Source: Yuukianura sp. NJ FZ-2021 (taxonomy: Eukaryota). Taken from it: a stretch of 64,000 nucleotides of DNA. The notes under the pieces were generated by a model. It made no database searches, was not told where the DNA came from, and was given only the letters and a program-made list of their open reading frames with translations. The DNA is taken from positions 5,270,001 to 5,334,000 of the forward strand of contig CM102285.1 in NCBI GenBank assembly GCA_046563655.1, written 5' to 3'. This document shows positions 35,450 through 63,413 of the stretch, piece by piece (within the stretch, counting starts at the first letter, position 1; the number at the start of each line of letters is the position of its first letter). The translations under genes were made by a program, and so were the position numbers.

Positions 35450-35484
35450 CAGAAGACTAAAAGTGAAAAGGTTTGGCGAATTGG

Positions 35485-40085: not shown

Positions 40086-40548
40086 TGCTGGGCCGACAGT
40101 TGGGAAGACATGGATGTAACATACAAACATTTTGACGTTGCCGAACTTCCTCGATGGGTTTTTCCAAAAGCTGAGTTGTAGAGCAATTTCCTTTAGGTCA
40201 GACTTGGCAAGCTTTATCCTCATTTTGGTGTTAAAGTTGATAATATCTATTATTGATGGTCTCTTATTGAAGGAAATTCAACGGTGAATTTTTGTAACTT
40301 TAGCTCCAATTTTGTCTGAGGATTCCGTCAGAGGACTTGCCAATGTTGGCAAAGGCTCTTACTGAGTTATATACAGAGATTCTGGGTTACAACATTGTTG
40401 ACAAAGAACAAAAAAAAATAAGGAACAACATGTATAAGCGTCAAGTTCCACTGCAGCGAAGGGTATTGCTAGTTTTTTATTATTTTATATTTTGACAATA
40501 ATACGTTGATAGATTTTATTTTTTGTTAGATTAACTGTCCTCATCAGT

Positions 40549-41433
40549 ATGTCCTCATCAGTCCTCTTTCAGGAATTTGAGTCTACTCATTTTGGAATTT
40601 TGTCTAGCATTAGAGTTATTCCTCAACATACTATTACAAAGATTGTTGAATTCTTTTCTCATGTTGAAAAGGATATACCTAATTTGTTGGAACAGTATGT
40701 TTTACATTTTGAGGTAATAACTGTAAGTATAGTCTTACCGATACACTGCAAAATGAGTTGTTAAACAAGGAAGCCGAGGCATACCTCACCTCCCTCACAC
40801 AACGTCTCTGCTTTACGGAAGATGTGAACAAAATAATTCACGACTCGTGCTGCTTTAATTATTGAAATATTAAACAACTACAACCAAAATGGTAAAAAAT
40901 GAAAAGAAAAAAATGGTTATTGAGAAACGCTTTTTTTTCATTTTTATTTGTTACTTTTAGGTTCTCTTTGGACTTTGGAAAGGATTCTTTTGTTTGATGT
41001 TTTGATTGGCACTTGTGGAGCGATTGAAGCTCCAGGTAGAATAATTGCATTACCAGAAAATTTAGCTCGACGGCAAGGAATTTTGGGATTTTCTGCAAAA
41101 TTTTTTGACTGCTTCCGGTATGCTATAATGGTTGGAATTTATTTACAATCCGATCCTGTTCAAGAATGTTTTTTTAAAAAGATTGGATCGAAGGGATTTC
41201 CAAAAGAATTTTAAAATCAATGCCTTCAGAAGCTTTTGAACAGCAAGTATACTCAACCACACGTTATTCCCCAACTTAGATCTAAGCACTATCAATTATT
41301 TACGATACTACAAAATCGTGTTATACTTTCCAACATTTACACACATACATACTTGTGTGAGAATATGGTAGATACCCTACCATGGTCTACCTTGTACACT
41401 CCTGAACAAATAATAAACTACTATGACTTATAG
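40549..41433 (+). pseudogene. Polinton/Maverick protein-primed DNA polymerase B remnant (N-terminus joined to C-terminus, catalytic core missing)
   Basis: N-terminal pattern NQNG|SLWTLERILLFDVLIG...GRIIALPENLARRQGIL...CFRYAI resembles the Polinton pPolB GSGW...LP...CF.WA region, with a 69-nt GT-AG intron at 40892-40960 and frameshifts. ORF 41236-41433 (QLRSKHYQLFTILQNRVILS...DTLPW) resembles the pPolB C-terminal IRS..H..YT..QNK..LS...TLP.G tail. Confidence 0.65.
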
Positions 41434-41465
41434 TCATTGTCAGCCAAATTTTGGCTGTGCTCTAA

Positions 41466-42095
41466 ATGGACGTAAGGATTCGAACGCCATTCCTAGGAGT
41501 AATTGCTGGTAAACTTCATCTTTTTTATTTTGAAACTTTTTGATTTCTTAATAAAGCAACTTTCAACAGGTCCGAATGGAAGTGGAAAAACTACATTACA
41601 GACTTTATCAAAATTATCAAAAGAAGGCATTCTACTAATCCACCAATCTCCATAGTTATAATTTGGTACTCATACTTCCAAGCATTGTACCAAAATTTGG
41701 TTGAAGTTGAAGAAGATGTCCATCTCGTACCTACACTACAAGAAGCTTTACTTCTAATTCAACCAAACTCTTTGCTATTCACAGATGATCATTCAATAGA
41801 CATTTTGAAAACACCGTCCTACCTTCGACAAGTTACCAACCTATTTGCGAAAGAGTCTCATCATCAACAATACTCCATTTTTCCTATTCTTGACAATTTA
41901 TTTGAACCAAAAATTAGAACACTTGCTCTACAAACTGAATTATTATTCGTATTCTCAAATCCTCGTGACAGGTCAAATATTTTCAATCTTTCCCGCCAGT
42001 CTTATCCTCATTCTCCATGGTTCCTCAACGAAGCTTTTACCTTAGCCACTCAAAACAAACCATACTCATATTTTGTTATTGGTGTTGCACAATCA
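41466..42095 (+). pseudogene. Polinton/Maverick A32-like DNA packaging ATPase, intron-containing, frameshifted, 3' truncated
   Basis: MDVRIRTPFLGVIAG|PNGSGKTT (Walker A) after removing a 61-nt GT-AG intron (41509-41569). Walker-B-like LLFTDD, then LFAKESHH, RTLALQT, FSNPRD, LSRQSYP and EAFTLAT.KPYSYFVI, which follow the Polinton ATPase pattern. Confidence 0.85.
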
Positions 42096-43226
42096 ATGCT
42101 GGACGGACAGTAGATATAATATTCGTTGTCGTAGAATTTCACTTGGGTGAGAGGTGGTAATGGTGTTTGTGTAGCTTCACAAGTATCTACTTGGAAGTAT
42201 TCCTGCTGAGTTTTCTGCAGCGAATTTTTGCAAGTTTGCGTCGTGCTCAAAATAAAGTCTTTGTTCAATTTTTCATTGAAGGTATCAAAGATGCAGTCAC
42301 GTGTGGTAGACATGATGACGGACTTTGGACCGCGATATTGAAGAAAACATGTTTTGTTTCCTACAGTTTGTCGTATTTTGAAAGTGTCAGCCTCGAAAAG
42401 GATCAATGACGGATCGACGTTTGGAACGGTAAAATCCAAATGGATTTCATCGTCGTCATCCATATAGCATCCAGTAAAGGTGCCGTGGGTCACAGGGCAA
42501 TTACTTCCGCAAGGTAAGGTGATGTTGAAGTAGGAGAAAAAAATCATTACTTAGTTGACGGCTGCGCCACAGTTCTCCAGTCTGAAGTATGACTTGTCTA
42601 CCTTCTAACATCCGACCCATTAAATATGAAACGACGTATGCCCATTCCACAGCTTCTTGTTGGCTATTCAGAACTTGATTGCGTATTTGATCCAATTTTC
42701 CCGCCAATTTAAGAATTTCTTTTTGTAGCACACTCTTGTTGATTTCAAAGTTTCGGAAAACTTTTTTCTCGAGGTCGTCTAGTACAATTTTCATTTCTTC
42801 TTGTCTTGTTTGAACAGACATTGATTTGGTAAGAGCTAGTCCACCTAGTCCAATACCGGTGGTGGCAATGGCGGCAACTACCAAAATACCAATGGCAAGA
42901 AATAACTCTCTCTTCCCTCTTGCCATTGAGGTATTTGGTTGCGGAGGGCAGATCTTTTTCAAATTGTCCAATACAATTTCGTGATAATTGTCCTCGCACT
43001 TATCAATAACTTCATTGATGAACCGACTTCAGGTGTTGTGTGGTGAAAGAAGATCACACGGCGACACAAGTTTAATTCTGGATTGGACTATGTGAAAGCC
43101 AGTCACAACGGGAGTAGGATTTCGTCGCCAGATAACAAATTGACCCTGCTTATGAGCAGGAACCACTGAGCCATCTCCGATGGTACCCATGGTGATCAGA
43201 AGAAGAAGGCAGCAAATGAAATGCAT
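42095..43226 (-). pseudogene. env: Envelope-like class I fusion glycoprotein, in frame with copia pol
   Basis: Signal-peptide-like MHFICCLLLLITMGTIGDG, furin site RGKR (42909-42920), hydrophobic ELFLAIGILVVAAIATTGIGLGGLAL, heptad-like helix, Cys-rich region with sequons NTS/NKS/NIT/NKT. One in-frame TGA (43029-43031) and one frameshift in a homopolymer near 42540; truncated before any TM anchor. Confidence 0.8.
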
Positions 43227-46067
43227 TTTGCCAGTTTTAAATGTTGCACTAGAGTTGGTTGTCGTCGCGGACTCTGGAGTAGAACTGACAGTCGTCTTTA
43301 AAATTTTCCTTTTTACTGCATGTGCATAGGATGTGGGATGTTCATCAAGTCCTATTAATTTTCTTTTTCTCAGAAAAGTTTCTTTGTTAACTGCCTTGGT
43401 CAGGATATCCGCCGGTTGAAAACTATCAGGAGTGTGCTGTAACGTGACCAATTTTTTGTCCATCAAGTTGCGTATGTAGTAATGGCGGATGTCAATGTGT
43501 TTTGTCTTGTCGTGATATTCCGGGTTTTTTGCAAGTTTAATAGCACTCTGGGAATCAGTTTGAATGACAACTTGCTCTTGAGGGTGACCACATTCAGCCA
43601 AAATGTGTCTGAACCAGATAGATTCTTTTCCTGCATGAGACAGAGCAATGTACTCTGCTTCGGTGCTAGATAACGCAATGCAAGTTTGTCGTCTGCTTAG
43701 CCAGATAATAGGTGCTTCATTTATGATGAATAGACAACCCGTAGTTGACTTTCTTGTGTTGATGTCTGAGCCATAATCTGCGTCAACATAACCGTCCAGT
43801 GTCAAGGTCGAGTCTTTTTTATATTCTATGGACAAGTCTGCTGTCCCTTTTAGACATCTCAGAATGTTTTTGGCGGCTTCCCAATGATCTTTGTCATATG
43901 CGCCAAAGAAACGTGACAGATAGTGAACATTGTCTGGTCTAGTACATCTAGCCAGGAACAACAAAGATCCTACTAATTCCTGATATTCAAAGTCTGAATT
44001 GCCTTTTGTCTCTGCTGTTTTGAGTTGTAAACCAGGGCTCATTGGAATGTTGAGTGGTTTACCATTGGACATATTGAACCTTTCCAACATAGATTCAATG
44101 TACCCTTTTTGACTAATAACAATGCTATTTTTCTTTTGCTTGATCTCTATGCCAAGAAACTTAGTCAAGTTTCCTACTGTCAATTTAAAGACATTTTGTA
44201 ATTTTGCTAAGATTTGTTGATTTTCCTTTTTGTCATTTCCCATAATTATGCCATCATCGACATAAATTATGATGAAAGTAACTTTGTTATCCTGTGCTCT
44301 CTTGTAAACACAATAATCGGACGTGAGAGCTGAAAAACCTAATTTTTGAAGTTCGTTGTTCAGAGTATTATTCCAGCACCATGGCGCTTGCTTGAGTCCG
44401 TACAAGCCCTTCTTAAGGAGGCAGACTAAACTCTCTCCTTTAATGCTAGTACCTTGAACTTCGAAACCTTCAGGTTGCTCCATGTATATTTCTTCGTCTA
44501 AATTGCTATTCAAGAAGGCTGTGGCAATATCAAATTGAATCATATCCCAGCTTTCTTGAGCAGCTAGGGCCAGCATTATTCGAATTGTTTCATAACGACA
44601 AACCGGGGCAAACGTTTCTTCGTAATCGACCCCTTCTACTTGATTAAAGCCTTTTACTACTAATCTGGCTTTATATTTCTCAATTGTTCCGTCAGGGTTG
44701 GTCTTAATGCGAAATACCCATCGGTTTTTGAGTATTTTTCTTTCCAATGGTCTTGATACTAAAATCCACGTTTTGATTTGGAGTTGACTTTTGAACTCAT
44801 CTTCCATTGCCTGTTTCCATTCGTCAGCTCCTTGTGTTCGAATGGCCTCTTTGTAAGAGTTGGGAACAGTTTGTAGTACAAACATTTGGAATTTTGCATT
44901 TTTGGCCTGCAAGCGAGCGGACCTGCGCAGTGTGTTTTCCGTACTACCAGCAGTAGTATTAACCGTTGCGTTAAGAGACTCATTATCATGCGTGAGTTCC
45001 GGTGTCATTTCGACTGAATTATTTTCAGTGTCTGATTTGATTTGTAAATTTTCAATATTTACATAATCACAATCCGCGTTAAGTTTTTCGTCTTTTGCGG
45101 GAGAAACAATTCTGTATTCTCCTGTCAAATCCTTCCTTAGAACAATTTTATTGCTGTCCGGATCAGATTTTGACGTATCCATTGAATCAATTTTTGTATC
45201 TGACTTTGGAAGTGTCTCTATTGCGGTGATATCTTCTTGGAAGATATTTCTGATTTTGATTTTTTCGAGTTTTTGGTTAAATGACACGTGTTTTGTTTGT
45301 TCAAAGTAAACACGATTTTCTGGACTGTAGAGCCTATACAAATCGTTGGCGGAATTGTACCCCACCAGAATGCGTCTTGTTGCTTTCTCTTCCCACTTAT
45401 TTGCGTTTGTCATTTTATGCGCGAAAGCTTCGCATCCAAATGTCTTGACATGATGTAATTTTGGCTTTTTACCAAAAATCAGCTCATACGGCGTTTTGAC
45501 TTTATTACGGGAAGATAGAGTTCTGTTCAGAAAATAGACTGCGGTTTTTACTGCATCTTCCCAGAAAGTGTCATTTAGATTTGCCTCTATTATCATTGTA
45601 CGAGATGCATCCTGAATGGTTCTGATGTCCCTTTCCATAAAACCGTTGCTCGCGCTTGAGTAAGGAGCATTTGTGCCCAACTGTATTCCTTTTTGGGACA
45701 CAAACTGTTTTAACTCCTCATTAATTATTTCAGTGCCATTGTCACTTCGAATGACTTTGACATGATTTCCCGTTTGATTAGCGATAAAGTGAACAGCGTC
45801 CTTAATATTTTTCACAGTCTCATCTTTAGTCTTCTGCGCATAAACTTGCCTGAAGTTGCTTGCCTGATCTTTAATGACGAGGAAATATTTATTTCCCTTT
45901 TTGGAGGTGGTATTTGCATAACCCAGATCAAGGTGAAGACATTCACCCTCTTTGAAATTGCTTTCCGTCTGGCTGGATTTATACCCTTGTTTCTTTGATT
46001 TTCCCAAAAGACAGGAGTCACAAGTAAAATCTTCCTCCTTCATTTGCTCTAAACCAAGAGCAGCTTC
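43227..46067 (-). CDS. pol: Copia pol: integrase core, reverse transcriptase, RNase H
   Basis: CDSC; IN LHLDL / IRSDNGTE / NGFMER; RT KARLVVKG, QFDIATAFL, LYGLKQAP, IYVDD; RH YVDADY, LSSTEAEY, KHIDIRHY, QPADILTK. Small in-frame deletion in the TRPD..VHYLSRF region. Confidence 0.95.
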
Positions 46068-46330
46068 AGTAGGTAGATAGGACGGACTTTCACGCCAAAT
46101 CAACCTTTGGACAAATAAGGTTTAAAACCCACAGGCGTGAGATCCTACAAGTCAGATTAATTAAGACTAATTAACACTTCCTGACGCCAAATCAACCTTT
46201 GGACCCATAAGGTTTAAAACCCACTGGCGTGAGATCCTACAAGTCAGATTAATTAAGACTAATTAACACTTCCTAACGCCAAATCAACCTTTGGACCCAT
46301 AAGGTTTAAAACCCACTGGCGTGAGATCCT
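46068..46330 (+). repeat. Left TIR with about 2.6 copies of a 92-bp unit
   Basis: ACGCCAAATCAACCTTTGGAC recurs at 46092, 46184 and 46276. Confidence 0.92.
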
Positions 46331-46783
46331 TCAAATCACATGAGGATTCAAAACCACACCAAATCCTCAAAACTTTTTGCGAAATAGACAAATTCGAGAG
46401 GGGAAAAAAGCCGCAGTGGAAATAAATTGGATAGAAACTTGTCTAAAAAATAGTTAATAATTAAGAAAATAAAAGAAAAAGCCACAGACAGTCGAAATAA
46501 ATTGGATTAGAAACACTTACGTCCTTTTTTCAAAGCTAGACAAAGGATTTGTGCTTACCCTTGACCACAGAAGAAATTTAGACAAAAATTTTTAATATGT
46601 AAAAACAAAAATCAATTATTCAGACTTTAGTATTTATAGGTGTTTTAGAATAAGTCTGTTCAACCAAACCTAATCTTTTTGAGACAACAGTTGTGAGCAG
46701 AAGGCTAGAATTTACAAATTAATCCTTCTGGCACTTTACTCATAACCTGAAGTCTGAAAAGAACATTTTAACAAAACAAACTG

Positions 46784-47249
46784 ATGCTACAGCAGCAGCA
46801 GCAGCAGGACGAAGGAGAAACTTTGGGTAAGTGTATAGATGTAGTGTGAAAATTATGTCCATTTTCTTATTGCGTCTTATATACTTAGACAAGCCTGAGT
46901 TTTCAACGATGGAGGTAGAGATGATCGCTACACTTCTAGATTTACACGAAGAAAAAATCCAACTGAAAATCCAACTCAATGATGTCATGCAGGAATATGA
47001 AAAAATAAAAAAAGAAATGAAGGCCATGGAGTTTAAACTAGCCGAAAATGTGAAAGAAGCAATCATCTTCAATGCAAAGTAACAATATATTATGAAATTA
47101 ATTCAACTGGTTACTAATTTGAATTCATTTACAGAATTTTTGAACTGGAGACTCAGCTTGAAGATGAAAGAAAGGCTATAGAACTTTGGCTAAACGCTAC
47201 CAGTGAAACATTTAGGACTCTCTCCAGCTCATTTCGACAAGTCACTTGA
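46784..47249 (+). CDS. Cargo gene A: 115-aa coiled-coil-like protein, 3 exons (46784-46826, 46889-47078, 47135-47249)
   Basis: Two in-phase GT-AG introns (62 and 56 nt) give MLQQQQQQDEGETLDKPEF...IFELETQLEDERKAIELW...; AATAAA near 47308. Confidence 0.6.
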
Positions 47250-47883
47250 TAAGTGTATTCTGTACTCAGAAAACGACCCAATTTTCTCTACCTCATCTTG
47301 ATGAAAAAATAAAACCAGACTTAAATTCGTTGTAATCTCATAAAGCGGTTTATTTGAAAATCAATGACAGAAAAATCAAACACCTTACGTTAAGTTCTCA
47401 TACAAATTCTGCAGCGTTCAAGTCGTGGTGAATTTTTCTTTCTTAAATTTTGTTTTTTCTTAAATAAATTAGATCAATCAAGAAAGAAAAAAAATCTTAA
47501 AACCGCAGACGCAAACGTAAATCAATTTTAAACTACTGACTACAATATGTGGAGAGAAAGTATTTAAACGCTTCGCACTCTTCATAAGAAACTGTCTTCT
47601 CCTGGAAATTCTGTAGAGTATAATGAGAACAATTCGTTTCAAACTAAATAACGATTGTCTCATTATATTCCATAGAAGCATTATTTAAAACGTCAGAAAT
47701 TACACCAACTTCGAAGTATCAATTACAAGTTCATAATTTTTTCTGAAGGGTTTTAGACAACAATTTGCTTTAAGTTTAAAACAAGCTATTGTTACCTAAC
47801 ACTCTTTAGAATAGTAATGAGCGCAGAAAAAAGCTCTCTATTATTAAAAATAGTTTAACCTTTCTTATTGTCTGGTGCAGAAC

Positions 47884-48401
47884 ATGGAACCTAAGAACGG
47901 TGAGTAATTTCACTAAATGGCTCTATTAAAGTATTGGGTAGCTAAAAACTTTTTAGTTAGTTTTTAATACTTTAGGCTTTCTTAATAATTAATATCTTTT
48001 TTAAAATGAACACAAAACTTTACTACACATTACGTAGAGCACCCCTTATCTATATTGTGTGTGTGTGTGTGTGTGTGAGGGGTATAGAGTTGCTAGCAAA
48101 GACTTACTGAACACTTGTTTCTCTAGAAAATCATGATGAGGAGCAAGTTGAAAATTTCTTGACAACAATGCTGGAGATTATAAACTGGGGAGGATCAATC
48201 AAAATCCATGGAAATACATACATTAAGGGGAATGTTGACTATTGTCAGAAAGCTTGCACCTTCATGGCAGGCATCGGCAAGCGAGATATTGTCATTCTCG
48301 CAAACTTTCTATCTCTAGACATTGAGTTCCAAACCGAAATTCAAAAAACTTACGAGTCTACCACAAAGGAATCAGCAGAAAAAATATTGAGGCACGCTTA
48401 A
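47884..48401 (+). CDS. Cargo gene B: 96-aa unknown protein, 2 exons (47884-47899, 48127-48401)
   Basis: ATGGAACCTAAGAACG|GTGAGT donor splices in frame to CTAG|AAAATCAT, extending ORF 48159-48401. Confidence 0.5.
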
Positions 48402-48509
48402 CAGAAGCCCTACAAAAAATTTACGATTATAATATCAATAAATAACACCCTTCTAAAGTTCTTCTTCTTCTTCCATGTTGAATCGTGATGATGTGAAAGT
48501 CAAACATTC

Positions 48510-48780
48510 ATTTCTGTCAAGTTTTAAATATATTGTTTCATCAAATTTTTTCAAATTACAACAAATGTTAACAACAACAACTTTAATTCAATTTGAAATA
48601 TTTCTTGACATGTTAAATAAAAGGTCAAATGTATGTCACATTTATTTGCACTGCAACTTTACTTTTATGAAATGCATTTCTGTCAAGTTTTAAACAATGT
48701 TTCATCAACTTTTTTTTTCATAACTTTGATTCAAATTGAAATATTTATTGACATGCTAAATATAAGGTCAAATGTATGTA
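48510..48780. repeat. Degenerate tandem duplication, about 165-bp period
   Basis: ATTTCTGTCAAGTTTTAAA...TTGACATG(T/C)TAAATA.AAGGTCAAATGTATGT occurs twice. Confidence 0.7.
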
Positions 48781-48810
48781 ACAACTATTTATTTGGAATT
48801 TTAATTAGAC

Positions 48811-49565
48811 TTAAAATTTCACAAAATTTCCTTCTGTCGCTTGCATTAACAGATATTTCTGAAACCAGTAAAATTGAATGATAAAGTTTCTGAACTTTTT
48901 TAAAATTAAAGGAAATATCATAGTCAAAATAGGAAACAAGTATCGTTTTAAACACAAAACGTGTGACAATTTCAGATTTAGACGAACATCCAATTGTTTT
49001 GATGCAGAGGTCAACTTAGCTACTGCTCACTAAAAAGACAGAAAATTAAGATGGTTGTATGTTTGTATGTAAAAAGTAAGTAAGGTTTAACCTACCTTTT
49101 CAACCTTCTTAGCAATCTTTAGGATTTCTGAAACAAAGAAATCCGCGAACACCCATTTCATGTCCATAGAATTTTCGTTGGTAATGTATTCAACACAATG
49201 TTGAGCGAAAGCGTCTGCGATGTCACCTTTACTTTCATGCATCACAGACAACATCTTGTGCATGTAATCGTTCGCTCTTTTGAGTTTTCAAAAGTAATAA
49301 AAGAATGAGCAGAGAAAATGTACGCAGATCCAACCTTAGTACAGCTTATCGCAAAATAGTCGCCAAATTCAATGAAAGCTTATTTAAGCATGCTTCGTTG
49401 ACGTTGATATACTCTTGGGCTGTACTTCTCCCATAGCGTGTTATCAAACTTTATAAGCGCGACCGGCTGATTTATATTTTCAGCTTTAAGAATTTCCTCA
49501 GCATTCTCAGAGTTTGAAAACCCGACCCTACTAAACCCTCCTATACCTGATATTGTGTAGTTCAT
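48811..49565 (-). pseudogene. Cargo gene C: multi-exon unknown protein with a nonsense codon
   Basis: TATAAAA about 35-40 bp upstream of the ATG. MNYTISG...SMLK*AFIEFGDYF...KVGSA|ANDYMHKML...KKVEK| with plausible GT-AG introns; last exon uncertain. Confidence 0.45.
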
Positions 49566-49988
49566 TTTTTAGCTTACAAATCTCCAGAGATTCGCGGCTT
49601 TTATACAAATTTTTTTATTGTGGGTAAGACGTATAACCATAAGGTTTACCCAGTTACTTCACGTGTCTAGACATGTCATTAATTCAAAAACCGCACATCC
49701 GTTAATTTAGTCAACTTATTTGAATGATGAAACTCTAATTTGTGCCACCTGTGGCACTGCAGCATACGCACTCTAACCTAAGCCGATTTTGGCACCACTG
49801 CGGTTTATTATGACTCTGCTAGACAACCTCACACCTGGAACCAAGTAATCTAACTTGTCTAGACACGAAATCAATTCAAAAAACGCACATCTGTTAATTA
49901 AACACACTTTTTTAAATTCTGTAAACATGAATCAGCGTCCCACCAAGCATATATAAGGGCACAGTCGGAGTTAGACGTACTATGCAAA

Positions 49989-50905
49989 ATGTCAAAAGGT
50001 TAGTATCTTATCCAATCTGTCATTTCAAATTGTAATTTCCTTGTTGTTTCTTCTTTTTTTTCTTTCTTTTTTTTTGTTCAGCTGGAGATAAAGATGGCTA
50101 TTTGGAAGCAGCCGCCAGAGACATCTATAGTCCAGGAAATGATAAGTTTTTTGGGCAAAACGACTTGATTCACAGCATTGGAACAGATTGTGTTTGCAGG
50201 CTGGGATTTGACGACTTGCTGCAGTGTACGTATTTACATCATCCACATAAAGAGAAATTAGCCTCAACCACTGTTGTGTTATTGTCCGCTTCCTAATGCT
50301 TAAACAAGCTTTCATTGAATTTGGACAAGGATTACCTAGTAAATCATCGCAGCATACGACACATAATGTGTATATATTATGCAATATATAAAAAATTACA
50401 TATTTTCAGGCTTCAAGGTGTATGTGAGAAAAGGCTACGCAAACTTCTCACCTACAGTTCTACATATCATCGCGAAAGAGATTCCGGAGATTTTGCACTA
50501 CACGAAGACCACGTTGAAGGAGATTGAATCTCAGCCAGCTGTAACGGAGAGAATCAATCCTAAAGATTCCAGTTTTTGGGCGGATTTTAGCGTCTTCACC
50601 ACGTCGTCAAAAACAGCGCGAATGAGAATTATCCGTGGGCGGTTCTCTCGGCTTCAGATGTATTTGAATTCTCCAATTCATGAGGAATCGCGCTTCCTGA
50701 ATTACATTGGTATGGAATATTGTGTAGGATAATATTATATAATGCTAAATACTCATTCTGATTTCTACAAAAGTAAAACAAATAAGCTAATTATAAGTGT
50801 ATTATATTTTCAGGGCCGCTGATTTTTTGGAATCGAGATGAGATATTAAGCTTTGTCACTATTATGGAAAACATGATGGAGAAGCTTGACATTTCAGACC
50901 TCTAA
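49989..50905 (+). pseudogene. Cargo gene D: 4-exon unknown protein with one apparent frameshift near 50280
   Basis: TATATAAG near 49950. ATGTCAAAAG|GTTAGT, CCTA|GTAAAT and ATTG|GTATGG donors all splice in phase to downstream exons ending at TAA 50903-50905. Confidence 0.5.
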
Positions 50906-51161
50906 AGCTGATTTTCTTTCCTGAAAATGTTTCATCTTTGTGTTAATTGGAATGAATTCTTCTTCGCCTTTATTCGAATAAATCTTTCTTCTTGATTGGA
51001 ATAAATTCTGATGGAATGTTTTATTTCAACGAATTTTTACAAAATACAACAAATGTTTGATAAGCGTCACAAGTTATTGATTCCAATTGAAATATTTCCT
51101 CATTCACAAACTTTTTCAGAAACGTTTGACACGACTCTTTTAATAAATTCAACTCGGAAAT

Positions 51162-51195
<34 letters not shown>

Positions 51196-54100
51196 AAAGA
51201 AAATCAGTGACCCTGAAAATATAATACACTTATAATTAGCTTATTTGCCTGATGTTCTCTACACGTCCCGTCCCATTCCCACCTGAAAATGTTTCATCTT
51301 TGTGTTAATTGGAATGAATTCTTCTTCGCCTTTATTCGAATAAATCTTTCTTCTTGATTGAAATAAATTCTGATGTAATGTTTTTATTTCAACAAAGGAT
51401 GGTTTCGGATTTTGGGGGTAACTTTGATGGCAAAAATGAAGATGAAGGCGGCCGAACACAGTTTTGAAACTTTCCGAAATTCATCATCACTTGTCATAGA
51501 ATCGATGTCAACAAAATTTGGGAAAGTGTTCGGCCGCCTTCCACCCTAAATGTGTCACGAAAGTTGACCAAGTTTTCATCAAAATCATCAACTTTTTTTT
51601 ATTACTAACATCGAAAGCATCATCGAAATGAATGTAATTTTTCTCACAGGGATGTGCACAAATTGTAAGTTTTGTTCAGCGAAGCTGCACAATTTCAAAC
51701 TTCGGGTTTTTAATTTTAATTTTGCACAATTTCTAACTTTTAAGTGTATCCGCTGCACATTTTCCTTGTTTTACGTTTTTAGAATGCACAATTTCTAGAT
51801 TTTGTGTTATTCGCAGTGCACATTTCAAAAATTTTACGTTCGAACATTGCACAACTTTCATACCTGTTCTGTTGTTGCGTTGCACAAGATCAAACTTTCT
51901 GGTTGTCACATTGCACAGTTTCGAATCTTTCGTGTTTTTAAACTGCATATTTTTACAAGTTATAATAATAAGAATCAACCGATTGTAAACCGGATATACG
52001 TAAGTAACGAAAGCCCTGTTCACGTCTGGCATAAAATAATTATCGGTGTCAGATAAGTGTTGATTTTGGTAAATGAGATACAATTGTAAATGAGTCCATT
52101 TTGTTTTTCATTGATTTCGAAGAAAAAGTCAAAAGTTTAAAGAATGCAGCAGTTTTAGATTTTTGAGAAGTAAGCTAAGTAAGTAAGAAGTAAGTTTCAG
52201 CTTTTTGAAAATGAATTTATACTCCATTTTCCTAAGACAAGTTTGTCGTAGAAAATGAAATATGTTTTTTTAAAGAATTTTATATGAAGTCATATGAAAT
52301 TAAAACTTCTATACAACTTTCCCTACGAAACTGTGTAGGAAAATCGAGCATAAATTGGGGTTAACAGGTTAGGCTACCTTGGAGTTTTTAATTTGTTAGG
52401 GAATATCATGAAAACAAGAATAAAACCGTGTTTTTGTTGTTTTCTTATGCGGGATTTTTTCAACAATCGGTGTATTGCCTAACCTGTTAATGAAACAGTT
52501 TCCTTTTAAAACACCTTGGCTGCACCTGTGGACTGTGTTGTAGATAGTTGACGTTAATGGACTGACGGCCAGACGGACAGACAGACAGAAAGGGTAAAAG
52601 CATAAAGTACCTTACGCTATTTAGGAATAACAGATGTTTCGCAATTTCGAGCTTTTTCAGTTTTCATGTTGCACAAGGCCGAAAGAATTGTGCAACATTT
52701 TGCACATTTGTGAAAAAAACAGGCGATTTAAAACGTTTTATAACGTTATTAATTGGGCCGGAGAAAATACAAACAAACAAATGGCACTGGGCCGGATTTT
52801 CTACAGAAACCCGAAACCATCCTTTTTACCAATAAAGTTAAACCCTTCTACTTTTAGAGAACTTTGAAAAAGTCAAAGTTTGAATCTTGTTAGCTACACG
52901 AGGACACTTTAGTGTAAAGAGAAAGTTATTACACCCGTATGTTAAAGAGATTTAAATGGAAACACATCCGCCCGTCCATCATAGTAAAAACGATACACGA
53001 CGAACTAAGCCCTGCACGCAAACTTTTGCTCCATTCTAAATTCACCCCATGAGCCTTCAGCTTAGTTTCTATCGTCAAGTACTTAAGTGACACAGACAGG
53101 TCAGATTTCTCAGGTTTCTGGAGTCAGGAACTTTCTATTTCCTCCTGGGAAAAAAATTTGAAGATTAACTGAAACAAAAGCGATTTTCAAAATTTTGAAA
53201 TTCTATTCCGAAATCAAAACTTCCAAATTCCGCGTGACCTGAAGGGTGAAAGTTGTTTGGGATTATGGGAGAGGAGATCATAAAATCTAAAGAGTTGCTT
53301 AACAAGTTTACAAGAAGACTTTGTTTAGGTTTGACGCTCTTTTCTGCTTCAAAATGGCACTCTTTGCAAGCATATTGTCCGTTTCCAGAATGGCTTCTGA
53401 GGTAAATTGATGAGGTGAAAGTGGAAAGTATGCTTGATAAGGCGTCTTCTGTTCCATTCCCATCATCTCCAATCCTCTTACTTGAGAGTTCCGTAGGGAA
53501 TGGATTTCCGCAATTGCTTTAGCGAATTCGCAAGGTGAAGCAACCATTCGGAAATATTATTGCAAACTTTGGAACTTCCGATTTTACATCATTTGTGATA
53601 AGTCTATCGTAGAGCTCGAAATTGAATGCCTAGGCGATATTAAATCTTTACACTAAAGCTGAAGGCTGGCCGTAAAGTTCAGAAATTGAATTTTTTGAAG
53701 TCTTTTCATTTTGATTTTCAAAATTTTGTTCTCATCCTCCTTGCCTCTGGCTATTTTTATTTTTTAGAATTTGGAAGTCTATTAATTTAAGTCATGAGAC
53801 CACAACAAAAGATCCTTGAGCGACACTTGAGAAATCAAGTCTGAAGGAAGGTTAGTTAATAAAGACAGCACAGGAATTAGTGAAGAGACACATTGGATTT
53901 AGGATCAGAACAGATTAAGTTTTTAACGAGGTCACAGTTTTCAAACATTCAAACAACAAAATACAAAAACTGAATGAAAGAAATCACGTAGGACTGGGTG
54001 GGACGCTTAAGTTTCAAATTTTTGGCTCATAAAAAAAAATACAAATTAGTTTTGACAAACTCCAAAGCTCAACATGGAGGTACTTTCGCCCTCAACCGGT

Positions 54101-54428
54101 ATTGATCATCCCTAAAGACGCCAATAAAATTTTGAAAAATGAGCCATGTATGATTCTTTCTTCCATTTAAATTCCAGATTCTAACCAACCGCCCTATCAT
54201 ATACTTTCTCTTTAGTAATCAAACAAAAATAAATGTTTACGACAGAAAATCCAAGAAAATTGTTTCATTTAATTCACTCCTCTCGAGATGCTATGGTCCA
54301 ATAAGAAATTATTGTGATATAAATTGTATTGTTTATAGACACGTGGATACATCTAAACAAGATAGGGTAAAAGAATTATTGTAGTGTATAAGATATACTG
54401 GTGAATCGGCTTGAGTGCAAGAGTCTTC

Positions 54429-54890
54429 CTATTTTGATTTGTTGTAGACAATAGTCTCATAGACAGTTTCGAGATATTCGGGCTTGGTGTCTTGTCCGTC
54501 AGTAGCCTCAGTGTCTTGTGACATTTCCTCCATTTCCTGTAGGTCTTGTTTTACCTGCCATGCGTGAGGAGTCCACTTCTCGCGACAAATCCAGAATGTC
54601 CGGGAGGATGAAGTGACATATTCATTCTTCAGCGTCATGAGATGCCGTTCCGTGTCGTGTGTAATCTGCATGCGTGGCAACTCTCTCGAATCTCCGCCAT
54701 TCTCCATGTAAATCTGGAAGAGGTATCCGATGAGTTTCGGCACATCTTCAAAGTCAATGGCGGTGGCGCTCCTGTTTTGCCGTATATTGATCGCCTTGTC
54801 TTCGCCACGTTTGCTAAACCAGCACAATAATAGCTTGTCGTTCACTGGCCGAGGTCTAGTTTGCCGGCTGATAGATTTCCTTGAGGCCAT
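54429..54890 (-). CDS. Cargo gene E: 153-aa unknown protein, paralog of gene F
   Basis: Intact ATG-stop ORF; shares the AIDFEDVPKLIGYLFQIYMENGG..RELPRM block with 55239-55805. Confidence 0.7.
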   Translation of the reverse strand: MASRKSISRQTRPRPVNDKLLLCWFSKRGEDKAINIRQNRSATAIDFEDVPKLIGYLFQIYMENGGDSRELPRMQITHDTERHLMTLKNEYVTSSSRTFWICREKWTPHAWQVKQDLQEMEEMSQDTEATDGQDTKPEYLETVYETIVYNKSK

Positions 54891-55238
54891 TGTTGTTTGA
54901 AACTTAACAGCGAAAATGGCAGTATTGAGCAGAGAGTGGATGTCGATGTCCTGGTTTCCAGTTGCAGACTACAGAAGACTGCTGATGCTTCTGACCAAAT
55001 AACTTTGTATGGACCCCAATAAATTGGATCCATACGCCAAGCCCCACGCCTAAACTCATAGACAGTTGGAGAGGGTTTATTTCTTTGTCATCATATCACA
55101 TTTCATCAAAAAAAAAAAAAGACAGGACGAGAGAGTAAGGAGAAAGTTAACATTGTTTCATTCCGAGTGTACTACTAGCCTAGTGTACAATTTTACAAAT
55201 ACAATACTAGAAAAATGTAGAAATACTTTTATTGTAGT

Positions 55239-55805
55239 TTAAAAAGGAAGTCTGAATTCTAAATCTGGGTCTTCGTATACTGTAAACGTTTGATACAGGA
55301 CATTCTCTCCAAGTGCTCCTTGTCGCTTTCTTACTTGTCGCCATGCTACAGCTGGAGTGGCTGTCGTACCATTTTCCGAATCAAGTTTATAGTCGGTCGA
55401 CTCTATTGGTTCTTCTTTTATGTCCCCTTCTGGAATCGTCTTCCAGTGGTTAATGTCCATGCCATACTTGTTTCGAATCGCAAGAAGCGTGCTGTCTTTT
55501 TGGCGATAGACTTTCATTCTGGGCAGTTCCTTTACCTTTCCACCGTTTCGAAGATATACGTGAAACAGATTGGCAATGAGCCCTGGGATCGATTGAAAAT
55601 CCACCGCGGCAGTCGTATCGTGTTGTTTAATATAGACTGCTTTCAACTCCTTTGGACCCCACTTTCCCAAGAAACAATCCAAAGGTTCTGGAAACTTTGG
55701 CATTCGCTTTTTAAGTTGCTTATAAGTTGGCCATTCGAACCCTTCTGGGAATGTAATAGTGCACGGACACTGGTTAGACTTGATGCTACTAGGCGGAATT
55801 TCCAT
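55239..55805 (-). CDS. Cargo gene F: 188-aa unknown protein, paralog of gene E
   Basis: Intact ORF; AVDFQSIPGLIANLFHVYLRNGG..KELPRM block; a minus-strand AATAAA lies just after the stop. Confidence 0.7.
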   Translation of the reverse strand: MEIPPSSIKSNQCPCTITFPEGFEWPTYKQLKKRMPKFPEPLDCFLGKWGPKELKAVYIKQHDTTAAVDFQSIPGLIANLFHVYLRNGGKVKELPRMKVYRQKDSTLLAIRNKYGMDINHWKTIPEGDIKEEPIESTDYKLDSENGTTATPAVAWRQVRKRQGALGENVLYQTFTVYEDPDLEFRLPF

Positions 55806-56040
55806 TGGTTGCTATTTCCCTAAACTTTTGTCTGGAGGTTCCACACAAGGAGATGGAGAAAGGGGTAGGGTGCTTAGTTGCTAATTCTAGGGTTCTTCTG
55901 TATTCGGTAAAAATCCTGTTGCAGCCTTCCTTGGTTCTGATTTGCTGTGTATCGTCCACAAATGCCTGGTGGAATTTGTTCTTTAAGATTGGAGATAGCT
56001 GTGAAGCTGTCAAAGTAACTGACCATTTAGGCTTCATCAT
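55789..56040 (-). CDS. Cargo gene G: 83-aa ORF overlapping the start of gene F
   Basis: ATG-initiated ORF just inside the right TIR with a 17-nt overlap with the next ORF. Confidence 0.4.
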   Translation of the reverse strand: MMKPKWSVTLTASQLSPILKNKFHQAFVDDTQQIRTKEGCNRIFTEYRRTLELATKHPTPFSISLCGTSRQKFREIATNGNSA

Positions 56041-56223
56041 CTCCTTTTAAGCGTCTTGGTCGAGGTATTCAGGAATCCCATTGGATAACCAAAACTCCTC
56101 CCCACCGATTCCTATTTGTCCAAGGTGTTAACGGACATATTGTTAACGGACAAAGGATTAAACTCACTGGAAGCGTTAATTAAGAAAAGGATGTCTTAAT
56201 TAGTCTGACTTTGATAAGTCATA

Positions 56224-56394
56224 AGGATCTCACGCCAGTGGGTTTTAAACCTTATGGGTCCAAAGGTTGATTTGGCGTCAGGAAGTGTTAATTAGTCTTA
56301 ATTAATCTGACTTGTAGGATCTCACGCCTGTGGGTTTTAAACCTTATGGGTCCAAAGGTTGATTTGGCGTGAAAGTCCGTCCTATCTACCTACT
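56224..56394 (-). repeat. Right TIR with about 1.6 copies of the 92-bp unit
   Basis: Reverse complement of 46068-46238 with very few mismatches; a degenerate further unit lies at about 56168-56215. Confidence 0.92.
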
Positions 56395-57812
56395 GCTTCT
56401 TTCTCTTTTGTCAATTTTAGGAATTCACCATTAATATGGGCAAGGCGCTTATGCCATGTTACCTCTTTTATGCAGGTAAAAGCATGTTTTCTTTTTATGG
56501 GCTTGAATTTCATGATTTGAAGCCCGTCCTTCCGAACGGCTTCAAGATCCGGCTCATTGTTCCAAAAGAACGTTATGTCCCAAAATCTATTTTTAATTAC
56601 TTCAAAACCTTTTTCTAGAAGCACGTTTTCTGAAACAAGGTTTACTCCTTGGGGAATGTAATCCACGTTATGTAATTCAATTTCTTCCCATCTTCCTTGT
56701 TTAAAAGCATTGACTTTGACCGTGCCAAAGCCTTCAGCGTAACTGCATGTGTTATTTGCCATATGAATTTCTTTGGGTTTTTCATAGACTGTGAAATTTG
56801 AGAACCATTCTCGATTTCCACAGTAATGTTGATCTGCGCCAGAATCGTTTATCCATTGTTCTGCTATATCGTCGCTCTGCCATACCATGTAGGCATTTCT
56901 ATCTCTGTTTTCCCGTTTTCCCTGCTCATTGGGTTTCCAATTTGGGTCTCGTTTATAGGTCCCTGTGTGCGGGCGTATTTTTGTACCCTTGGGGATATTT
57001 TTGTATGAGACTGGAGTATTTTGATGAAAACAGTCTCTCGCCCAATGCCCCTTTCTGGCGCAAATTCTGCAAATATCATTTGACTTGTCTTTGCGGTTGT
57101 TAAATTTTCCCTCTTTACCTTCATTAGAAAAGAAGGATTTTGATGCTGACTCATCAGCTTGTTTTTCTTTAGGTTGCTCTAAATCCAAAGCTTTAAGTCG
57201 TGACAGGAGATTTCCTGTCGTTCTCCTTGAACTTTCTACCGACTTCCAAGCTTCCTTAAAATGTTTGTATTTGTTATCATCTAAACTGGTGATAGCTCTT
57301 GAAACTTCAGACTCCTCGTCTACGACGGAGCCTAATGACCTCAATTGAACCGCAAGGTTTTGGATTTCTATCATTGCCTGAAGAGCGCTTTTATCGCTGC
57401 TTGTTTTGACGTTATAGAATTTTTGCCAGAACAGTCCTTTTGACTCTCCGCTTAGATCTTGGTGAATTGTCGCCAGTTTGTTCCATGCTTCTGCAGCAGT
57501 GGAACAACTTGCAATGGAACTTAATTCTTTGTCCTTAATGCAAAGATAAATGCAACTTATTGCCTCGTTATTATGCTTGTCCCACTTGCTCTGGTCAACG
57601 CCTGCATTTGCTGGTCTTGGCGTAGTTCCATTGACTACCTTCAAAATGTCGTGTGCTCTAAACAAGCTTTCTAACCTCAGCTTCCACGTTATATAATTGT
57701 CTTCATTAAGTTTTGTAATGGAATCAGTATCGAATTTTTTGTTTAAAAAATGGTAACTTGTTACGGTCTCACCGGGCACAGCTACAGATGTTTGGTTAGA
57801 GTTGGAAGCCAT
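56395..57812 (-). CDS. gag: Copia gag, protease and first half of the integrase zinc-binding domain
   Basis: KLNEDNYITWKLRL (copia gag N-terminus), zinc knuckle CRICARKGHWARDC, protease WINDSGA, pre-integrase WHKRLAH. Confidence 0.95.
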
Positions 57813-57890
57813 GGCGTCTTCTAAGCTGGCTGAATTCTTCTAGAATGGACCCTTTTTGGTAGATCGTGAAGATCGCGTAGATCGTGTAGA

Positions 57891-57904
57891 TCGTGCTGAT
57901 AACG
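57891..57904 (-). promoter_or_regulatory. Copia primer-binding site matching the anticodon arm (5' half) of tRNA-Ile
   Basis: The minus strand reads LTR...CAACA|CGTTATCAGCACGA, complementary to tRNA-Ile UCGUGCU(I/G)AUAACG; the tRNA sequence is recalled, not searched. Confidence 0.65.
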
Positions 57905-58345
57905 TGTTGAAAGTTGATAATAAACTCAGTCGTAAATCGCAGCGTTTGGATTTTTGAGGTTTTTATTATAACAATAAACTTGTAACAGAATACGAGGCAC
58001 CACTGACTCTTTTTCCTATCTAGGTGATTTGGTATTTATATGGTTACACTAACCTGAAATTTGACATTAGTCATTGACCTAGTGTCCTTGATAAAAACGA
58101 TTTCTTACGTTATATCCTGGAGCCTACGTCAACTATGACTTTTCCTTGTCCTTGTCTATTATGTTATTGTAAACTAAATGAGGTGACTTAATTACCTACT
58201 TTATAATTAGTTTACCAAATCCTGTTTTTCTCCTTTACCTAATTTTCATTTACGTCAGTAGAGGTAGATGTCCTAATTCTAAATTCCTAATGTGACGCAT
58301 ATTCTTGTTTGTATGATTTAAATTATGCTGACCATATTTTTAACA
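57905..58345 (-). repeat. Copia 5' LTR (about 441 bp)
   Basis: TGTT...AACA termini; on the minus strand, TATAAATA near 58040 and AATAAA near 57966; abuts the PBS. The outer end cannot be confirmed because no second LTR is present. Confidence 0.7.
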
Positions 58346-60690
58346 AAAACCTTGCGGTGGAATTGAGGTGTGAGGGCTGTTCTATCTGCCCGCCAAATAA
58401 CCGCACACCACATTAGAGTTAGTATAAAATAAGTAGAAACGAACCAATAAAAAGAAGCAAGTGAAAGCGAAACAAGGATACGAGCATCACTTAACAATGG
58501 TGCCGAAAGCCTCCAAGATTTTTGAATATTTTTAGTTTTCCCAATTTAGTAGGAAAATTGTGTAATGGAATGCAAAATTCTAAAATTCCACAACAAAAAC
58601 GTCAAACACGTAGTGCTACAAAAGGAACCGGTCAACAATTAGAAGTCTCCGAAGGACTTAATTCCAGTCGAATTCGGTCAACAAATTCCAAACCGGAACG
58701 TTCACCTCAAGGGTCCATTACAGAAGAAGATCAATTTGTTGATTCCATTGACTTCCAAGACGATCCTATTTTTCCAATCAACGACTTAGAAGATAATCTA
58801 ACAACACCAGAATTGAATTTTAACATCATGTCACAATCCACATCACAACCTCCAGCCTCACAAACGTTAGTTATCAAAGGTGATAAGCGACCAACACACA
58901 AACAAAAACTTACTACCAAATCTATCAAACGCCACATTGAAAAATTCGACACTTGGGCAGATGGACTCAATTACGATGATGCTAGAAGGAAACGAGAATT
59001 TGTTAATTCATTTGAGCATGCAGCAGCAGATCAATGGTTTTCCATTTACAAGGACAAAATTACTGACACAGGGACATCATGGCGCGATTTTCAAACAAGT
59101 TTTACAGAACACTGCCCAAAGGACAAAGACGAGAAGGACCTTCTTCTGACCAATTTGCACACTCACACGCAAGATCCGGAAGAATCTTCTATTACATACG
59201 TTGTGCGAATTCGATATCTCTTTGGCGATACTTGGACTAAATACAACGAAAATGAGCTTTGTGAAGCTATAGTGAAGCAATGCAATTGCTGTCAGACGAT
59301 ACGTACAATATCGTGGTATTCCCGAGACTTATGCAGCATTACTCAACATGCTTACGGAATATGAAGGAAAGGGGATGAAGGACATCGATGCTGTTCCCAA
59401 AACATCTTCAACTATTCCAGCAAAAGTGGCTACTGTATACATCTACCGCTACAGACCCAATTGAGGAACTCACCACCGCTGTCAAAGAACTTAAAATTCA
59501 TTTCGCAGGCGTTCAATCTAACCGTGGCAGCAACTATCGGGGACGAAACAGAAGCTTTGGTGGGCGTGGCTACACCAATCATACAATCAGCAGTACAGAA
59601 ATGGATCCTTTGTACCTACTTGCTATTTCTGTGGAAAACGAGGTCATTACTCAACCAATTGTTATCAGCAACAAAACATGAGGGCATCCTTCAACTATCG
59701 ACAAAGACAACAAAGACGAGGAGCTCAAAACGGATTTAACCAGAATCAACGCAATGAATACCGCATGACGCAAAATTATGTTGATTCTCAATGGAATGAT
59801 CAGAATCATCCTGCACAACAACAAAACGCTCCTTCATATTCAACGCAACAGGGAAACATGCCACGGCGGGACTAGAGCCCGCCATCTTTAATTACCAACG
59901 ATCAAACTCAATCCAACCCAATTCATTCACTTCAATTTCTTCAAGCAATCACTCTAGTTCCAATCCTAAAATTACAATCGAAATTTGAAGTGCTCCGGTC
60001 CCCATTAGGTCAGGGTCCTCCGAAGGTCAGTTAGGGAGTGGCCCATAGTTAGTGTCGTAGAGTTAGTGTTAGTTAGTTTGTAGTTGGTTGAGATGAGAGA
60101 TGAGCTCGGAGGGAGATTTGAGAGCGAGCGTGTTCGTGTATAGTTTAGTGTGTAGTTGAGCTTTGAGCTCAGTCTGGTTTTGGTTATTGCTCGGAGAGCA
60201 TTTAGAGTTATGGTGTTTCTGCCACGAGCAGTTTATTTTGTATATATTTTATTTATCAGCGAATAAATATATGATATATATTTATTTACGCTGATCAGTG
60301 TTCACGGGAGTTCTGCAGAGGTTATTTGTCGTTTCACTGGGCATGAGTCTGCGGACTCGGATTGGAGTCTGAGAGGGTGTGGCTGCGGCCATTTCTGTGT
60401 TTTCCGTAGCGTGCGACGTTACAAATTTACAAAAACTCACTTCAAAATTCTCAAACTGGACCGAAAATTCTGGTTGCCGTTAATATTCTCAAACGACGAG
60501 TCATAGCCTTAGTGGAATGCGGAGCATCACTCACTCTCTTCAAACCGCATATTGCTCAAGAACATTACACCATTCCCAACACCTTCATTCAATTAGCACA
60601 GCTCAAGGACCCCCTCAAAGATGATGGAATCTGCTTTCTTCCAATTCAACTCGGAAAACGTCAAGTCAAGGAAAAGTCAAGCACCCGACC
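58346..60690 (+). mobile_element. Decayed Ty3/gypsy-type element: partial 5' LTR, PBS, gag, protease remnant
   Basis: LTR end TTAACA at 58496, PBS TGGTGCCGAAA (tRNA-Phe-like) at 58498, gag from ATG 58570 to about 59875 with frameshifts, zinc knuckle CYFCGKRGHYSTNC at 59621, degenerate protease ALVECGASLT near 60507. RT and IN are absent, so the superfamily is inferred. Confidence 0.75.
59986..60423 (+). mobile_element. Solo LTR inserted between the gypsy gag and protease
   Basis: TG...TTACA termini, 4-bp TSD AATT, internal AATAAA near 60262, abrupt G/T-rich composition shift. Confidence 0.7.
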
Positions 60691-62350: not shown

Positions 62351-63413
62351 ATGACTCTACGGATGCTCCTTGTACTTTGCGTCGGGACGACGCTTGTTGC
62401 AGAGGTCGCCGGGACGATGATGTGCCCATGGGCACTGGCGACACGAATTCGACGGAGTCCGGTGAACCCACACCGGTGGACCAAGAGGAACCTCACGTGG
62501 ACCCTTGGACCTACCCCATATGACATGGACCGAGAAGAAGCACTGGCGCCAGCCTGGCGTTCGTGAAGTGGCAACTTTACTCCAACTTCACCTTTACTTA
62601 CGTGGAGGGGAATGCTGATATCCCCATTACCTTCGAACACGGAATTCATGATGACGCTAGTGACGGACGTGGTGGCACACTAGCCCACGCCCACTATCCA
62701 GCATCAGTTATGGGCGGACAAATCCACCTAGACGCCAACGAGACTTGGTCTCTCGGAGAGGACGACGAACACGTCAATTTATTTTCGGTACTCCTACACG
62801 AAACGCCTTGGCCTTGCCACACACTCGTGCCATAGGATCTGTGATGACAGCCTGGTACCAGTTCTGGCCGCACGTTACCGAAACAGGAGTCCCCGACGAA
62901 GAAGCTCTGAAGGTCCTATACCCACCAGGGTTCATCGACGAAGGGCCGGATGGAGAAAATATCCGAGGCCTGAGTACACTGTGGTACGACCATGTTGGTT
63001 ATCTCAATGGGGACCACCTCCTGTTCCACGGGAAAAGTCACGTTAGAGTTACAGGAGCTGGGACACTACTTCCTACTCCAGTGCAGAATGGCGATTTCTT
63101 CGAGGACTTCCCGCCGGACCGCCGAATCAACTTCACAGTCGGCGTCACGAGTTACCTCTATGTTATGGTTGACGACCAAATCGGAGTATATTCATCAGAC
63201 GGCCACCTAATCACACCAGGACTCAAGCACCGAAGTATCTTTGGCATTACGCACCCAGTTTTGGGATACTTCCCGTCAGAACACACCCTCTGGATCAAGT
63301 TGACCACTGGATGGAGGCCGCTATACCTAGAGAAGGGCATGATACAAAATCGCCTTCGACATTGCCTTCATAATCGTGTCAAAGTTCAACGCTTTTGTCA
63401 TAGACCCTACTAA
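62351..63413 (+). pseudogene. Intronless matrix metalloproteinase (M10A/matrixin) with possible hemopexin-like tail, two frameshifts
   Basis: Signal peptide, RIRR, RWTKRNLTW, AFVKWQLYSNFTF, ADIPITF, DGRGGTLAHAHYP, GQIHLDANETWS, VNLFSVLLHE/ALALPH (7-nt deletion in the zinc motif), Met-turn SVMTAWY. Confidence 0.85.

Follow-up and report, generated by a model that had tools for sequence, protein, structure and literature searches.

How did a 10.3-kb block of DNA, bounded by long terminal inverted repeats (TIRs), come to lie inside the integrase gene of a copia retrotransposon, and what moved it there? The question is posed by a 64,000-nucleotide stretch of the Yuukianura sp. NJ FZ-2021 genome (contig CM102285.1, positions 5,270,001 to 5,334,000; hereafter the window), in which the block spans 46068-56394. 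An initial interpretation made from the DNA letters alone (hereafter the sequence-only reading) had proposed a non-autonomous Polinton derivative mobilised in trans, or a new class of large TIR element. Our analysis suggests that the block is almost certainly a genuine transposed TIR element that lacks a known enzyme of its own. We regard it as a further non-autonomous TIR element, a kind already known. The features that define the insertion are as follows.

46063..46067, no strand: left target-site duplication, GCTTC, placed by the empty-site joint (five ambiguous letters, 4/4 runs)
46068..46238, plus strand: left TIR, starting AGTAGG, a 24-nt tip and then 92-bp units (171 columns, two mismatches)
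46092..46338, plus strand: left subterminal tandem array of 92-bp units with palindromes (repeat analysis)
56224..56394, minus strand: right TIR, ending CCTACT (inverted-repeat search and end alignment)
56395..56399, no strand: right target-site duplication, GCTTC (sequence and empty-site joint)

An inverted-repeat search returned a single long pair of arms at this place, 46067-46238 and 56224-56395, each 172 nt long and 99% complementary to the other. When the left end was aligned with the reverse-complemented right end, 171 columns with two adjacent mismatches were obtained, beyond which the likeness decays. The TIRs are therefore near-identical, as had been noticed from the sequence. The element begins and ends 5'-AGTAGG...CCTACT-3' and is flanked on both sides by a perfect copy of GCTTC, which agrees with the proposed AG...CT ends and 5-bp duplication. 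Each end consists of a unique 24-nt tip followed by tandem units of 92 bp. On the left, the array at 46092-46338 has a 92-bp period with 2.7 copies and 96% matches; on the right there are two units and a degenerate third. Short palindromes were seen by eye within each unit (ACGCCA...TGGCGT, TTAATTAA). In the window there are two occurrences of the terminal 29-mer and five of the 21-nt core of the unit, all of them at the ends of the element; none of 100 shuffles reached either count. The predicted DNA fold of the left end was mildly better than that of shuffled sequences (z -2.7), from which we draw no inference. We also considered a composite macrotransposon made of two miniature inverted-repeat transposable elements (MITEs). 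The terminal 29-mer, with up to three mismatches allowed, was found only twice, once per outer end, so the ends are not complete small elements and a two-MITE composite is excluded.

The insertion site was defined with Pfam, which placed the two halves of the host copia on the minus strand on either side of the element.

43029..46067, minus strand: downstream half of the host copia, with the rest of the integrase (C-x2-C, rve), SH3_retrovirus, RVT_2 (reverse transcriptase) and the RNase H region (Pfam)
56400..57839, minus strand: upstream half of the host copia, with Retrotran_gag_2, zf-CCHC, Pol_BBD (protease-region barrel) and the start of the integrase (H-x4-H) (Pfam)

In the translations, read by eye, H-x4-H lies at ~56436-56453 and C-x2-C at ~46011-46022. 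Since the two pairs are on opposite flanks, the insertion is inside the zinc-binding motif of the integrase, in agreement with the earlier placement within the HHCC domain. By coordinate arithmetic on the open reading frames (ORFs), the last base of the duplication is the first base of a codon in each half. The halves thus share one frame, as had also been claimed.

The sequence-only reading had suggested looking for the empty site in other copies of this copia. Contigs of four public DNA runs from two studies, each run holding 55-74% of the element's sampled words, were compared with 45000-57500. In all four runs, one contig joins 46062 to 56395, skipping 10332 bases with five ambiguous letters at the joint. 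The skipped length equals that of the element together with a single GCTTC. The joined contigs diverge by ~1.4-4% from the copia of the window and so represent other copia copies, ones that lack the element. Uninserted copies therefore exist, and the empty site is exact to the base.

How old the insertion is and how many copies exist were examined from the flanking frames and from read depth. The copia frames flanking the element remain open, one over 485 and the other over 1030 codons. Together with the perfect duplication, these open frames argue for a recent insertion. The sequence-only reading had likewise called the insertion fairly recent but had done so from the near-identity of the TIRs, which is unsound: TIR identity does not date the insertion of a TIR element. 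In one of the runs (X1), the depth of the left half of the element is roughly flat at about one-third of the copia depth, and the left half is covered by single contig paths that differ by 0-1% from the window. This suggests few copies of the element, which is probably low-copy. Loose contig ends in another run (X3) connect parts of the 92-bp units with other DNA at 46205, 46256, 56281 and 56310, and hint that further, different family members exist. Three stretches (51672-52088, 52506-52922 and 52923-55007) are 3 to 20 times deeper, and a joint from 51396 to 52823 in runs X1 and X2 marks copies without a 1426-bp block, from which it follows that the right-central part holds nested or separate repeats. 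No other copy of the element was found within the 64-kb window with blastn and tblastx, and no exact match to either the 21-nt core of the unit or a 22-nt tip sequence turned up in scans of metagenome contigs.

To what extent, then, does the element encode the means of its own movement? Pfam searches of 81 stop-to-stop ORFs of at least 45 aa gave no usable match, whether to DNA_pol_B_2, to rve or to any other family (one of the 81 had a sub-threshold match of 18.4 bits against a cut-off of 34.3), and none of the 36 longer ORFs matched PHROGs. No transposase, integrase, polymerase, ATPase, protease or capsid domain was detected in these two sets of ORFs, although capsid models may be missing from these collections. 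Scans of the element with Rfam and for tRNAs likewise returned nothing. The earlier statement that no transposase, integrase, polymerase or capsid ORF is recognisable inside the element thus holds. Its count of about seven small genes was generous: two clean four-exon models, an uncertain third gene and three ORFs without introns were retained, and what remains of this patchwork interior consists of nested repeats and local duplications. All of the element's genes are orphans. The left half contains the following candidates.

46909..48401, plus strand: predicted gene A, exons 46909-47078, 47135-47240, 47881-47899 and 48127-48401, 189 codons, all introns GT-AG (splice modelling)
49090..49565, minus strand: candidate gene B, an ATG-started 61-codon ORF and a 66-codon ORF with no clean splice between them (ORFs)
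49648..49924, no strand: intergenic region of the divergent genes B and C, with two 85-nt direct repeats that are 74% alike (repeat search)
49989..50905, plus strand: predicted gene C, exons 49989-49998, 50082-50225, 50410-50709 and 50814-50905, 182 codons, canonical GT-AG (splice modelling)

The N-terminal half of the product predicted for gene A is coiled-coil-like. Its exon 2 donor is weak, so gene A may instead be two genes, each of two exons, with 94 and 96 codons. The predicted product matched no Pfam family, and its last exon matched PDB sequences with E 0.17 at best. Gene C is preceded by a TATA-like motif at ~49950 (~40 bases upstream) and followed by AATAAA at 50977 (~70 bases downstream). 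For its exon-3 ORF, a word-index search confirmed none of five candidates and the PDB sequences gave no match. Candidate gene B is possibly decayed. A 29-nt inverted repeat, 97% alike, links 49363-49391, just past the first ORF of B, to 50296-50324 in intron 2 of gene C; along with the 85-nt repeats, it may reflect an old inverted duplication of promoter-proximal DNA.

The guanine-cytosine (GC) content of the exons exceeds that of the introns in both models (0.37 against 0.30 in gene A and 0.43 against 0.28 in gene C). As a rough control, the plus strand of 46341-51300 was compared with 30 first-order Markov shuffles. The longest spliced ATG-to-stop paths in the real sequence had 189-205 codons, compared with maxima of 94-183 codons in the shuffles, none of which reached 189; on the real minus strand the longest path had only 145 codons. 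The top paths overlap the models of genes A and C but are not identical with them. The contrast in GC content and the spliced-path control support A and C as predicted genes.

The remaining features are the three intronless ORFs and stretches of rearranged or repeated DNA.

50779..51396, no strand: local rearrangement region with a 48-nt inverted repeat, 50779-50826 / 51200-51247 (repeat search)
50920-51033 / 51282-51396, no strand: 115-nt direct repeat, 96.5% (repeat search; a joint in run X2 goes back 363)
51397..52822, no strand: block absent from some contigs (joint from 51396 to 52823 in X1 and X2)
54432..54968, minus strand: 179-codon stop-to-stop ORF (153 codons from the ATG at 54890), paralogue of the 188-codon ORF (protein comparison)
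55242..55805, minus strand: 188-codon intronless ORF with an orphan conserved domain of ~70 residues (ORF list and paralogue comparison)
55792..56040, minus strand: 83-codon intronless ORF adjoining the right TIR (ORF list, by eye)

The block at 51397-52822 is probably a nested insertion. It contains repeats of ~63 nt at 51723-51921, and its right part overlaps 52506-52922, a segment that extends 100 bases beyond the block and in run X1 has a depth of ~932 compared with ~40. The 83-codon ORF gave no match above noise with Pfam and, in a different frame, extends by a few codons into the beginning of the 188-codon ORF. The two paralogues are 40% identical over 73 aa (E 5e-19), and the one at 54432-54968 lies in a stretch with about three times the depth of the left half. 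A profile of the paralogues searched against 1.84 billion representatives gave two matches with E at or below 0.001. One, P0002 (234 aa, unnamed), comes from metagenome contigs of ~1.2-1.4 kb and aligned over the ~70-residue core with E 6.5e-5. It appears to be the single credible distant relative; its Atlas model is of low confidence, with a predicted local distance difference test (pLDDT) score of 0.44. The other, P0001, is a repetitive protein and was treated as spurious. Further searches were negative: none of 34 candidates from a word-index search with the 190-aa ORF was confirmed, the Protein Atlas gave no usable match for the 190-aa ORF or for P0002, and none of 91 pattern stretches in viral contigs was confirmed. 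Against PDB sequences, a profile of the paralogues (A2) matched the start of a Bro1 V domain (chain 4jio_A) with E 0.0025 and a ribosomal protein with E 0.023. The Bro1 match is unexplained, lacks backing from Pfam and is too weak to name a fold; it may be due to chance. An 81-aa ORF at 54845-55087 had been considered by eye as a GPY/F integrase tail. This was rejected, as none of 17 candidates was confirmed and no Pfam family was found even at E 10.

The reading we favour, with a probability of about 0.4, is that of a Maverick/Polinton-like derivative that an rve-type integrase has moved. An enzyme acting in trans would have inserted it as one unit into the integrase gene of the copia. This enzyme would make 5-bp staggered cuts in the target and would most likely be the retroviral-type (rve) integrase of a Maverick/Polinton-like element. 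The element itself would be a deletion derivative that has kept Maverick-type ends and an accessory ('cargo') region, having lost the genes for polymerase, integrase, ATPase, protease and capsid. Its 24-nt tips and 92-bp subterminal units may be the recognition sites of trans-acting proteins, the intron-bearing genes A and C may be passenger genes, and the intronless ORFs at the right end may be leftover element genes to which we assign no role. What we infer here is which type of enzyme acted, from what the element descends, that it moved in trans and what its genes may do; the insertion with its ends, duplication and empty site, and the lack of recognisable enzymes, are observed. That a core-less Maverick derivative still moves cargo genes in trans, a milder idea than the new TIR class considered below, seems to us possible, if doubtful.

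This reading is suggested by published traits of Mavericks and related elements. Vertebrate Mavericks end in 5'-(AGT)2//(ACT)2-3' or (AG)3//(CT)3, with TIRs of 46-1447 bp and a 6-bp duplication (PMC8097293). The element shares the AG...CT ends, its terminal AGTAGG agrees with (AGT)2 at 5/6 positions, and its 171-nt TIR is within the published range. Its 5-bp duplication is in the 5-6 bp range of rve-type integrases. Duplications of 5-6 bp accompany mavirus integrations (bioRxiv 10.1101/068312) and are found in polinton-like viruses, one of which has a 5-nt duplication attributed to its RVE integrase (PMC12220804). The arrangement of the element also has a precedent in the nematode Mavericks described below: if their core module were deleted, something resembling this element would be left.

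Several observations weigh against it. The single insertion shows 5 bp, whereas 6 bp is characteristic of Polintons (LTR, or long terminal repeat, elements range from 3 to 6 bp; PMC10045372). At 10.3 kb the element is smaller than intact vertebrate Mavericks, which measure 12.7-24.6 kb (PMC8097293). No core-gene remnant, even a decayed one, was found with Pfam or PHROGs, so the proposed descent relies only on about six terminal bases and the lengths of the TIRs and of the duplication. A single insertion does not suffice to fix the latter, and ends of CAG...CTG with a 3-bp duplication, CTT, give the same junctions. There is no partner element within the window, the GC content of the element (0.36, compared with 0.39 in its surroundings) is not distinct, and the depth suggests few copies, so that activity in trans is not demonstrated. 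The sequence-only reading had listed AG ends, long TIRs and duplications of 5-6 bp as Polinton/Maverick hallmarks. These are indeed published traits, but the characteristic Polinton duplication is 6 bp. Of its proposal of a non-autonomous Polinton derivative, the insertion with TIRs and a target-site duplication, the lack of an own enzyme and the fitting ends stand; Polinton descent is not established.

The alternative that survives best is a non-autonomous cut-and-paste element of another or an undescribed superfamily with 5-bp duplications, moved by a DDE transposase encoded elsewhere. The likeness to Maverick ends would then be coincidental, and the interior would consist of captured host DNA and nested repeats. 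We consider this possible, if doubtful. In cut-and-paste transposons, binding sites are commonly arranged as subterminal tandem units with short motifs in either orientation. The interior looks like ordinary intron-bearing genes of host type plus junk, neither Pfam nor PHROGs revealed a remnant of a viral-type gene, and the tie to Mavericks comes down to two to six terminal bases. The described superfamilies, however, do not match. Transib elements make 5-bp duplications but have ends of the CAC type, unlike the AGTAGG ends here. Ginger1 makes 4-bp and Ginger2 4- or 5-bp duplications (4 bp in metazoan Ginger elements and 5 bp in TDD; PMC2836005), but both have TGTNR ends (PMC2836005; PMC10045372). 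IS3EU/GingerRoot has TA..TA ends and 6-bp duplications (PMC10045372). Because the ends of Ginger, IS3EU/GingerRoot and Transib misfit, no described 5-bp superfamily fits better than Maverick.

A second alternative turns on where the element stops. If it were one base longer on each side, its ends would be CAGTA...TACTG, the duplication would be the 3-bp CTT, and the element would be CACTA/CMC-like. CACTA/EnSpm (CMC) elements are large, have subterminal repeats, capture genes and make 3-bp duplications next to CACTA ends. The 172-nt inverted repeat returned by the search tool does include the C/G pair at 46067/56395, CTT with CAG...CTG explains the junctions equally, and CAGTA is one base from CACTA. 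This alternative nevertheless needs two chance matches of flanking bases (~1/16), compared with one (~1/4) for the 5-bp reading, and from the junction letters alone we estimate that the 5-bp reading is favoured over the 3-bp reading by ~4:1. Moreover, the CAC start is highly conserved in the CACTA superfamily, where the element has CAG, and the Pfam scan found no transposase remnant of CACTA type. Collectively, these points make a CACTA-like element improbable.

The right-end ORFs raise a third alternative, in which the element is an autonomous member of a new TIR class and the intronless ORFs of 83, 188 and 153 codons, with their orphan domain, are its own mobilisation proteins. The ORFs lie just inside the right TIR, lack introns, overlap in one pair and are paralogous in another, and the domain has a single credible distant relative among 1.84 billion representatives and gave no family in Pfam, Atlas or PHROGs. 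Against this, only ~70 residues are conserved, with no acidic triad and no nuclease or recombinase signature seen; the different copy depth of one paralogue suggests a separate repeat; and the Atlas model of P0002 is of low confidence. The prospect of an undescribed eukaryotic TIR class that makes 5-bp duplications, uses right-end ORFs in mobilisation and shuttles complete intron-bearing genes between loci would be a slim one, and that of an autonomous element slimmer still. Finally, among the contigs listed none bridges the occupied junctions and De Bruijn contigs break in TIRs, but exact TIRs at a perfect 5-bp duplication with a base-exact empty site are a signature of transposition and the interior is present in four runs from two studies, which makes an assembly artefact very unlikely and leaves an artefact, or a rearrangement not made by transposition, with next to no probability.

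The surroundings of the element provide further observations. No LTR pair was found for the host copia in the window (40000-43100 and 57700-59500 searched); the copia, which otherwise looks intact, has no defined ends in the window. The region downstream of its pol (42053-43200, minus strand) contains env-like ORFs. The pol frame closes with a hydrophobic stretch that resembles a signal peptide; next comes a 175-codon ORF, in which an R-G-K-R site, a hydrophobic segment and a heptad-like region were noted, and then a Cys-rich ORF of 166 codons in a different frame. By eye these ORFs resemble a class I (F-type) fusion protein; Pfam gave no match. An env-like gene carried by a copia-type element in an animal would deserve attention of its own. 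Adjoining the copia at 58495-59875, on the plus strand, a 289-codon ORF is followed by a CCHC zinc-knuckle ORF, probably the gag of another retroelement. Elsewhere in the window, inverted repeats were found at 16311-16562 / 16829-17080 (252-nt arms, 96% alike), at 31480-31579 / 32341-32440 (100-nt arms, 99% alike, enclosing a palindromic satellite that is also present at 22.4-23.0 kb, 22429-22994) and at 33406-34001 / 35495-36079 (~600-nt arms, 80% alike, in the region 33306-36450). These structures may be MITE-like or foldback elements. Animal host genes are represented by C2H2 zinc-finger ORFs and by an exon with a matrixin (Peptidase_M10) domain (E 2.8e-20), at 20395-28252 and 62524-62832.

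What the element means depends on the nature of its ends. If they are truly of Maverick type, the element would be a stripped-down Maverick consisting of ends and passenger genes only. Virus-like elements could then spawn non-autonomous gene shuttles in animals, which would bear on the transfer of host genes by Mavericks. Cases of non-autonomous Polintons/Mavericks are scarce in the open-access literature that we searched by phrase, in which a single paper was found; non-autonomous Polinton entries may exist in Repbase. Membership of an ordinary cut-and-paste family would instead make it a routine non-autonomous element, useful mainly as a dated insertion marker in a young copia.

Among known systems, the element differs from CACTA/EnSpm (CMC) transposons in having CAGTA rather than CACTA ends, and then only under the less likely 3-bp reading. 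The foldback families FB and Galileo have duplications of 7-9 bp and much longer TIRs. Like the element, these families have TIRs made of tandem subrepeats (PMC3573991). Ginger2/TDD elements have TIRs of 50-300 bp, and their Gypsy-like integrase makes duplications of 4-5 bp, lengths comparable with those seen here; Ginger elements, however, have TGTNR ends, measure 2.6-7 kb and encode one transposase (PMC2836005). The element is unlike Mavericks in that its TIRs are built of 92-bp tandem units and that it has no gene, or remnant of a gene, for pPolB, integrase, ATPase, protease or capsid. With nematode Mavericks, in which 2-5 kb of intron-containing cargo genes lie between one TIR and the integrase (bioRxiv 10.1101/2022.07.12.499685), it shares intron-bearing passenger genes near one TIR, here represented by the two four-exon models predicted in its left half.

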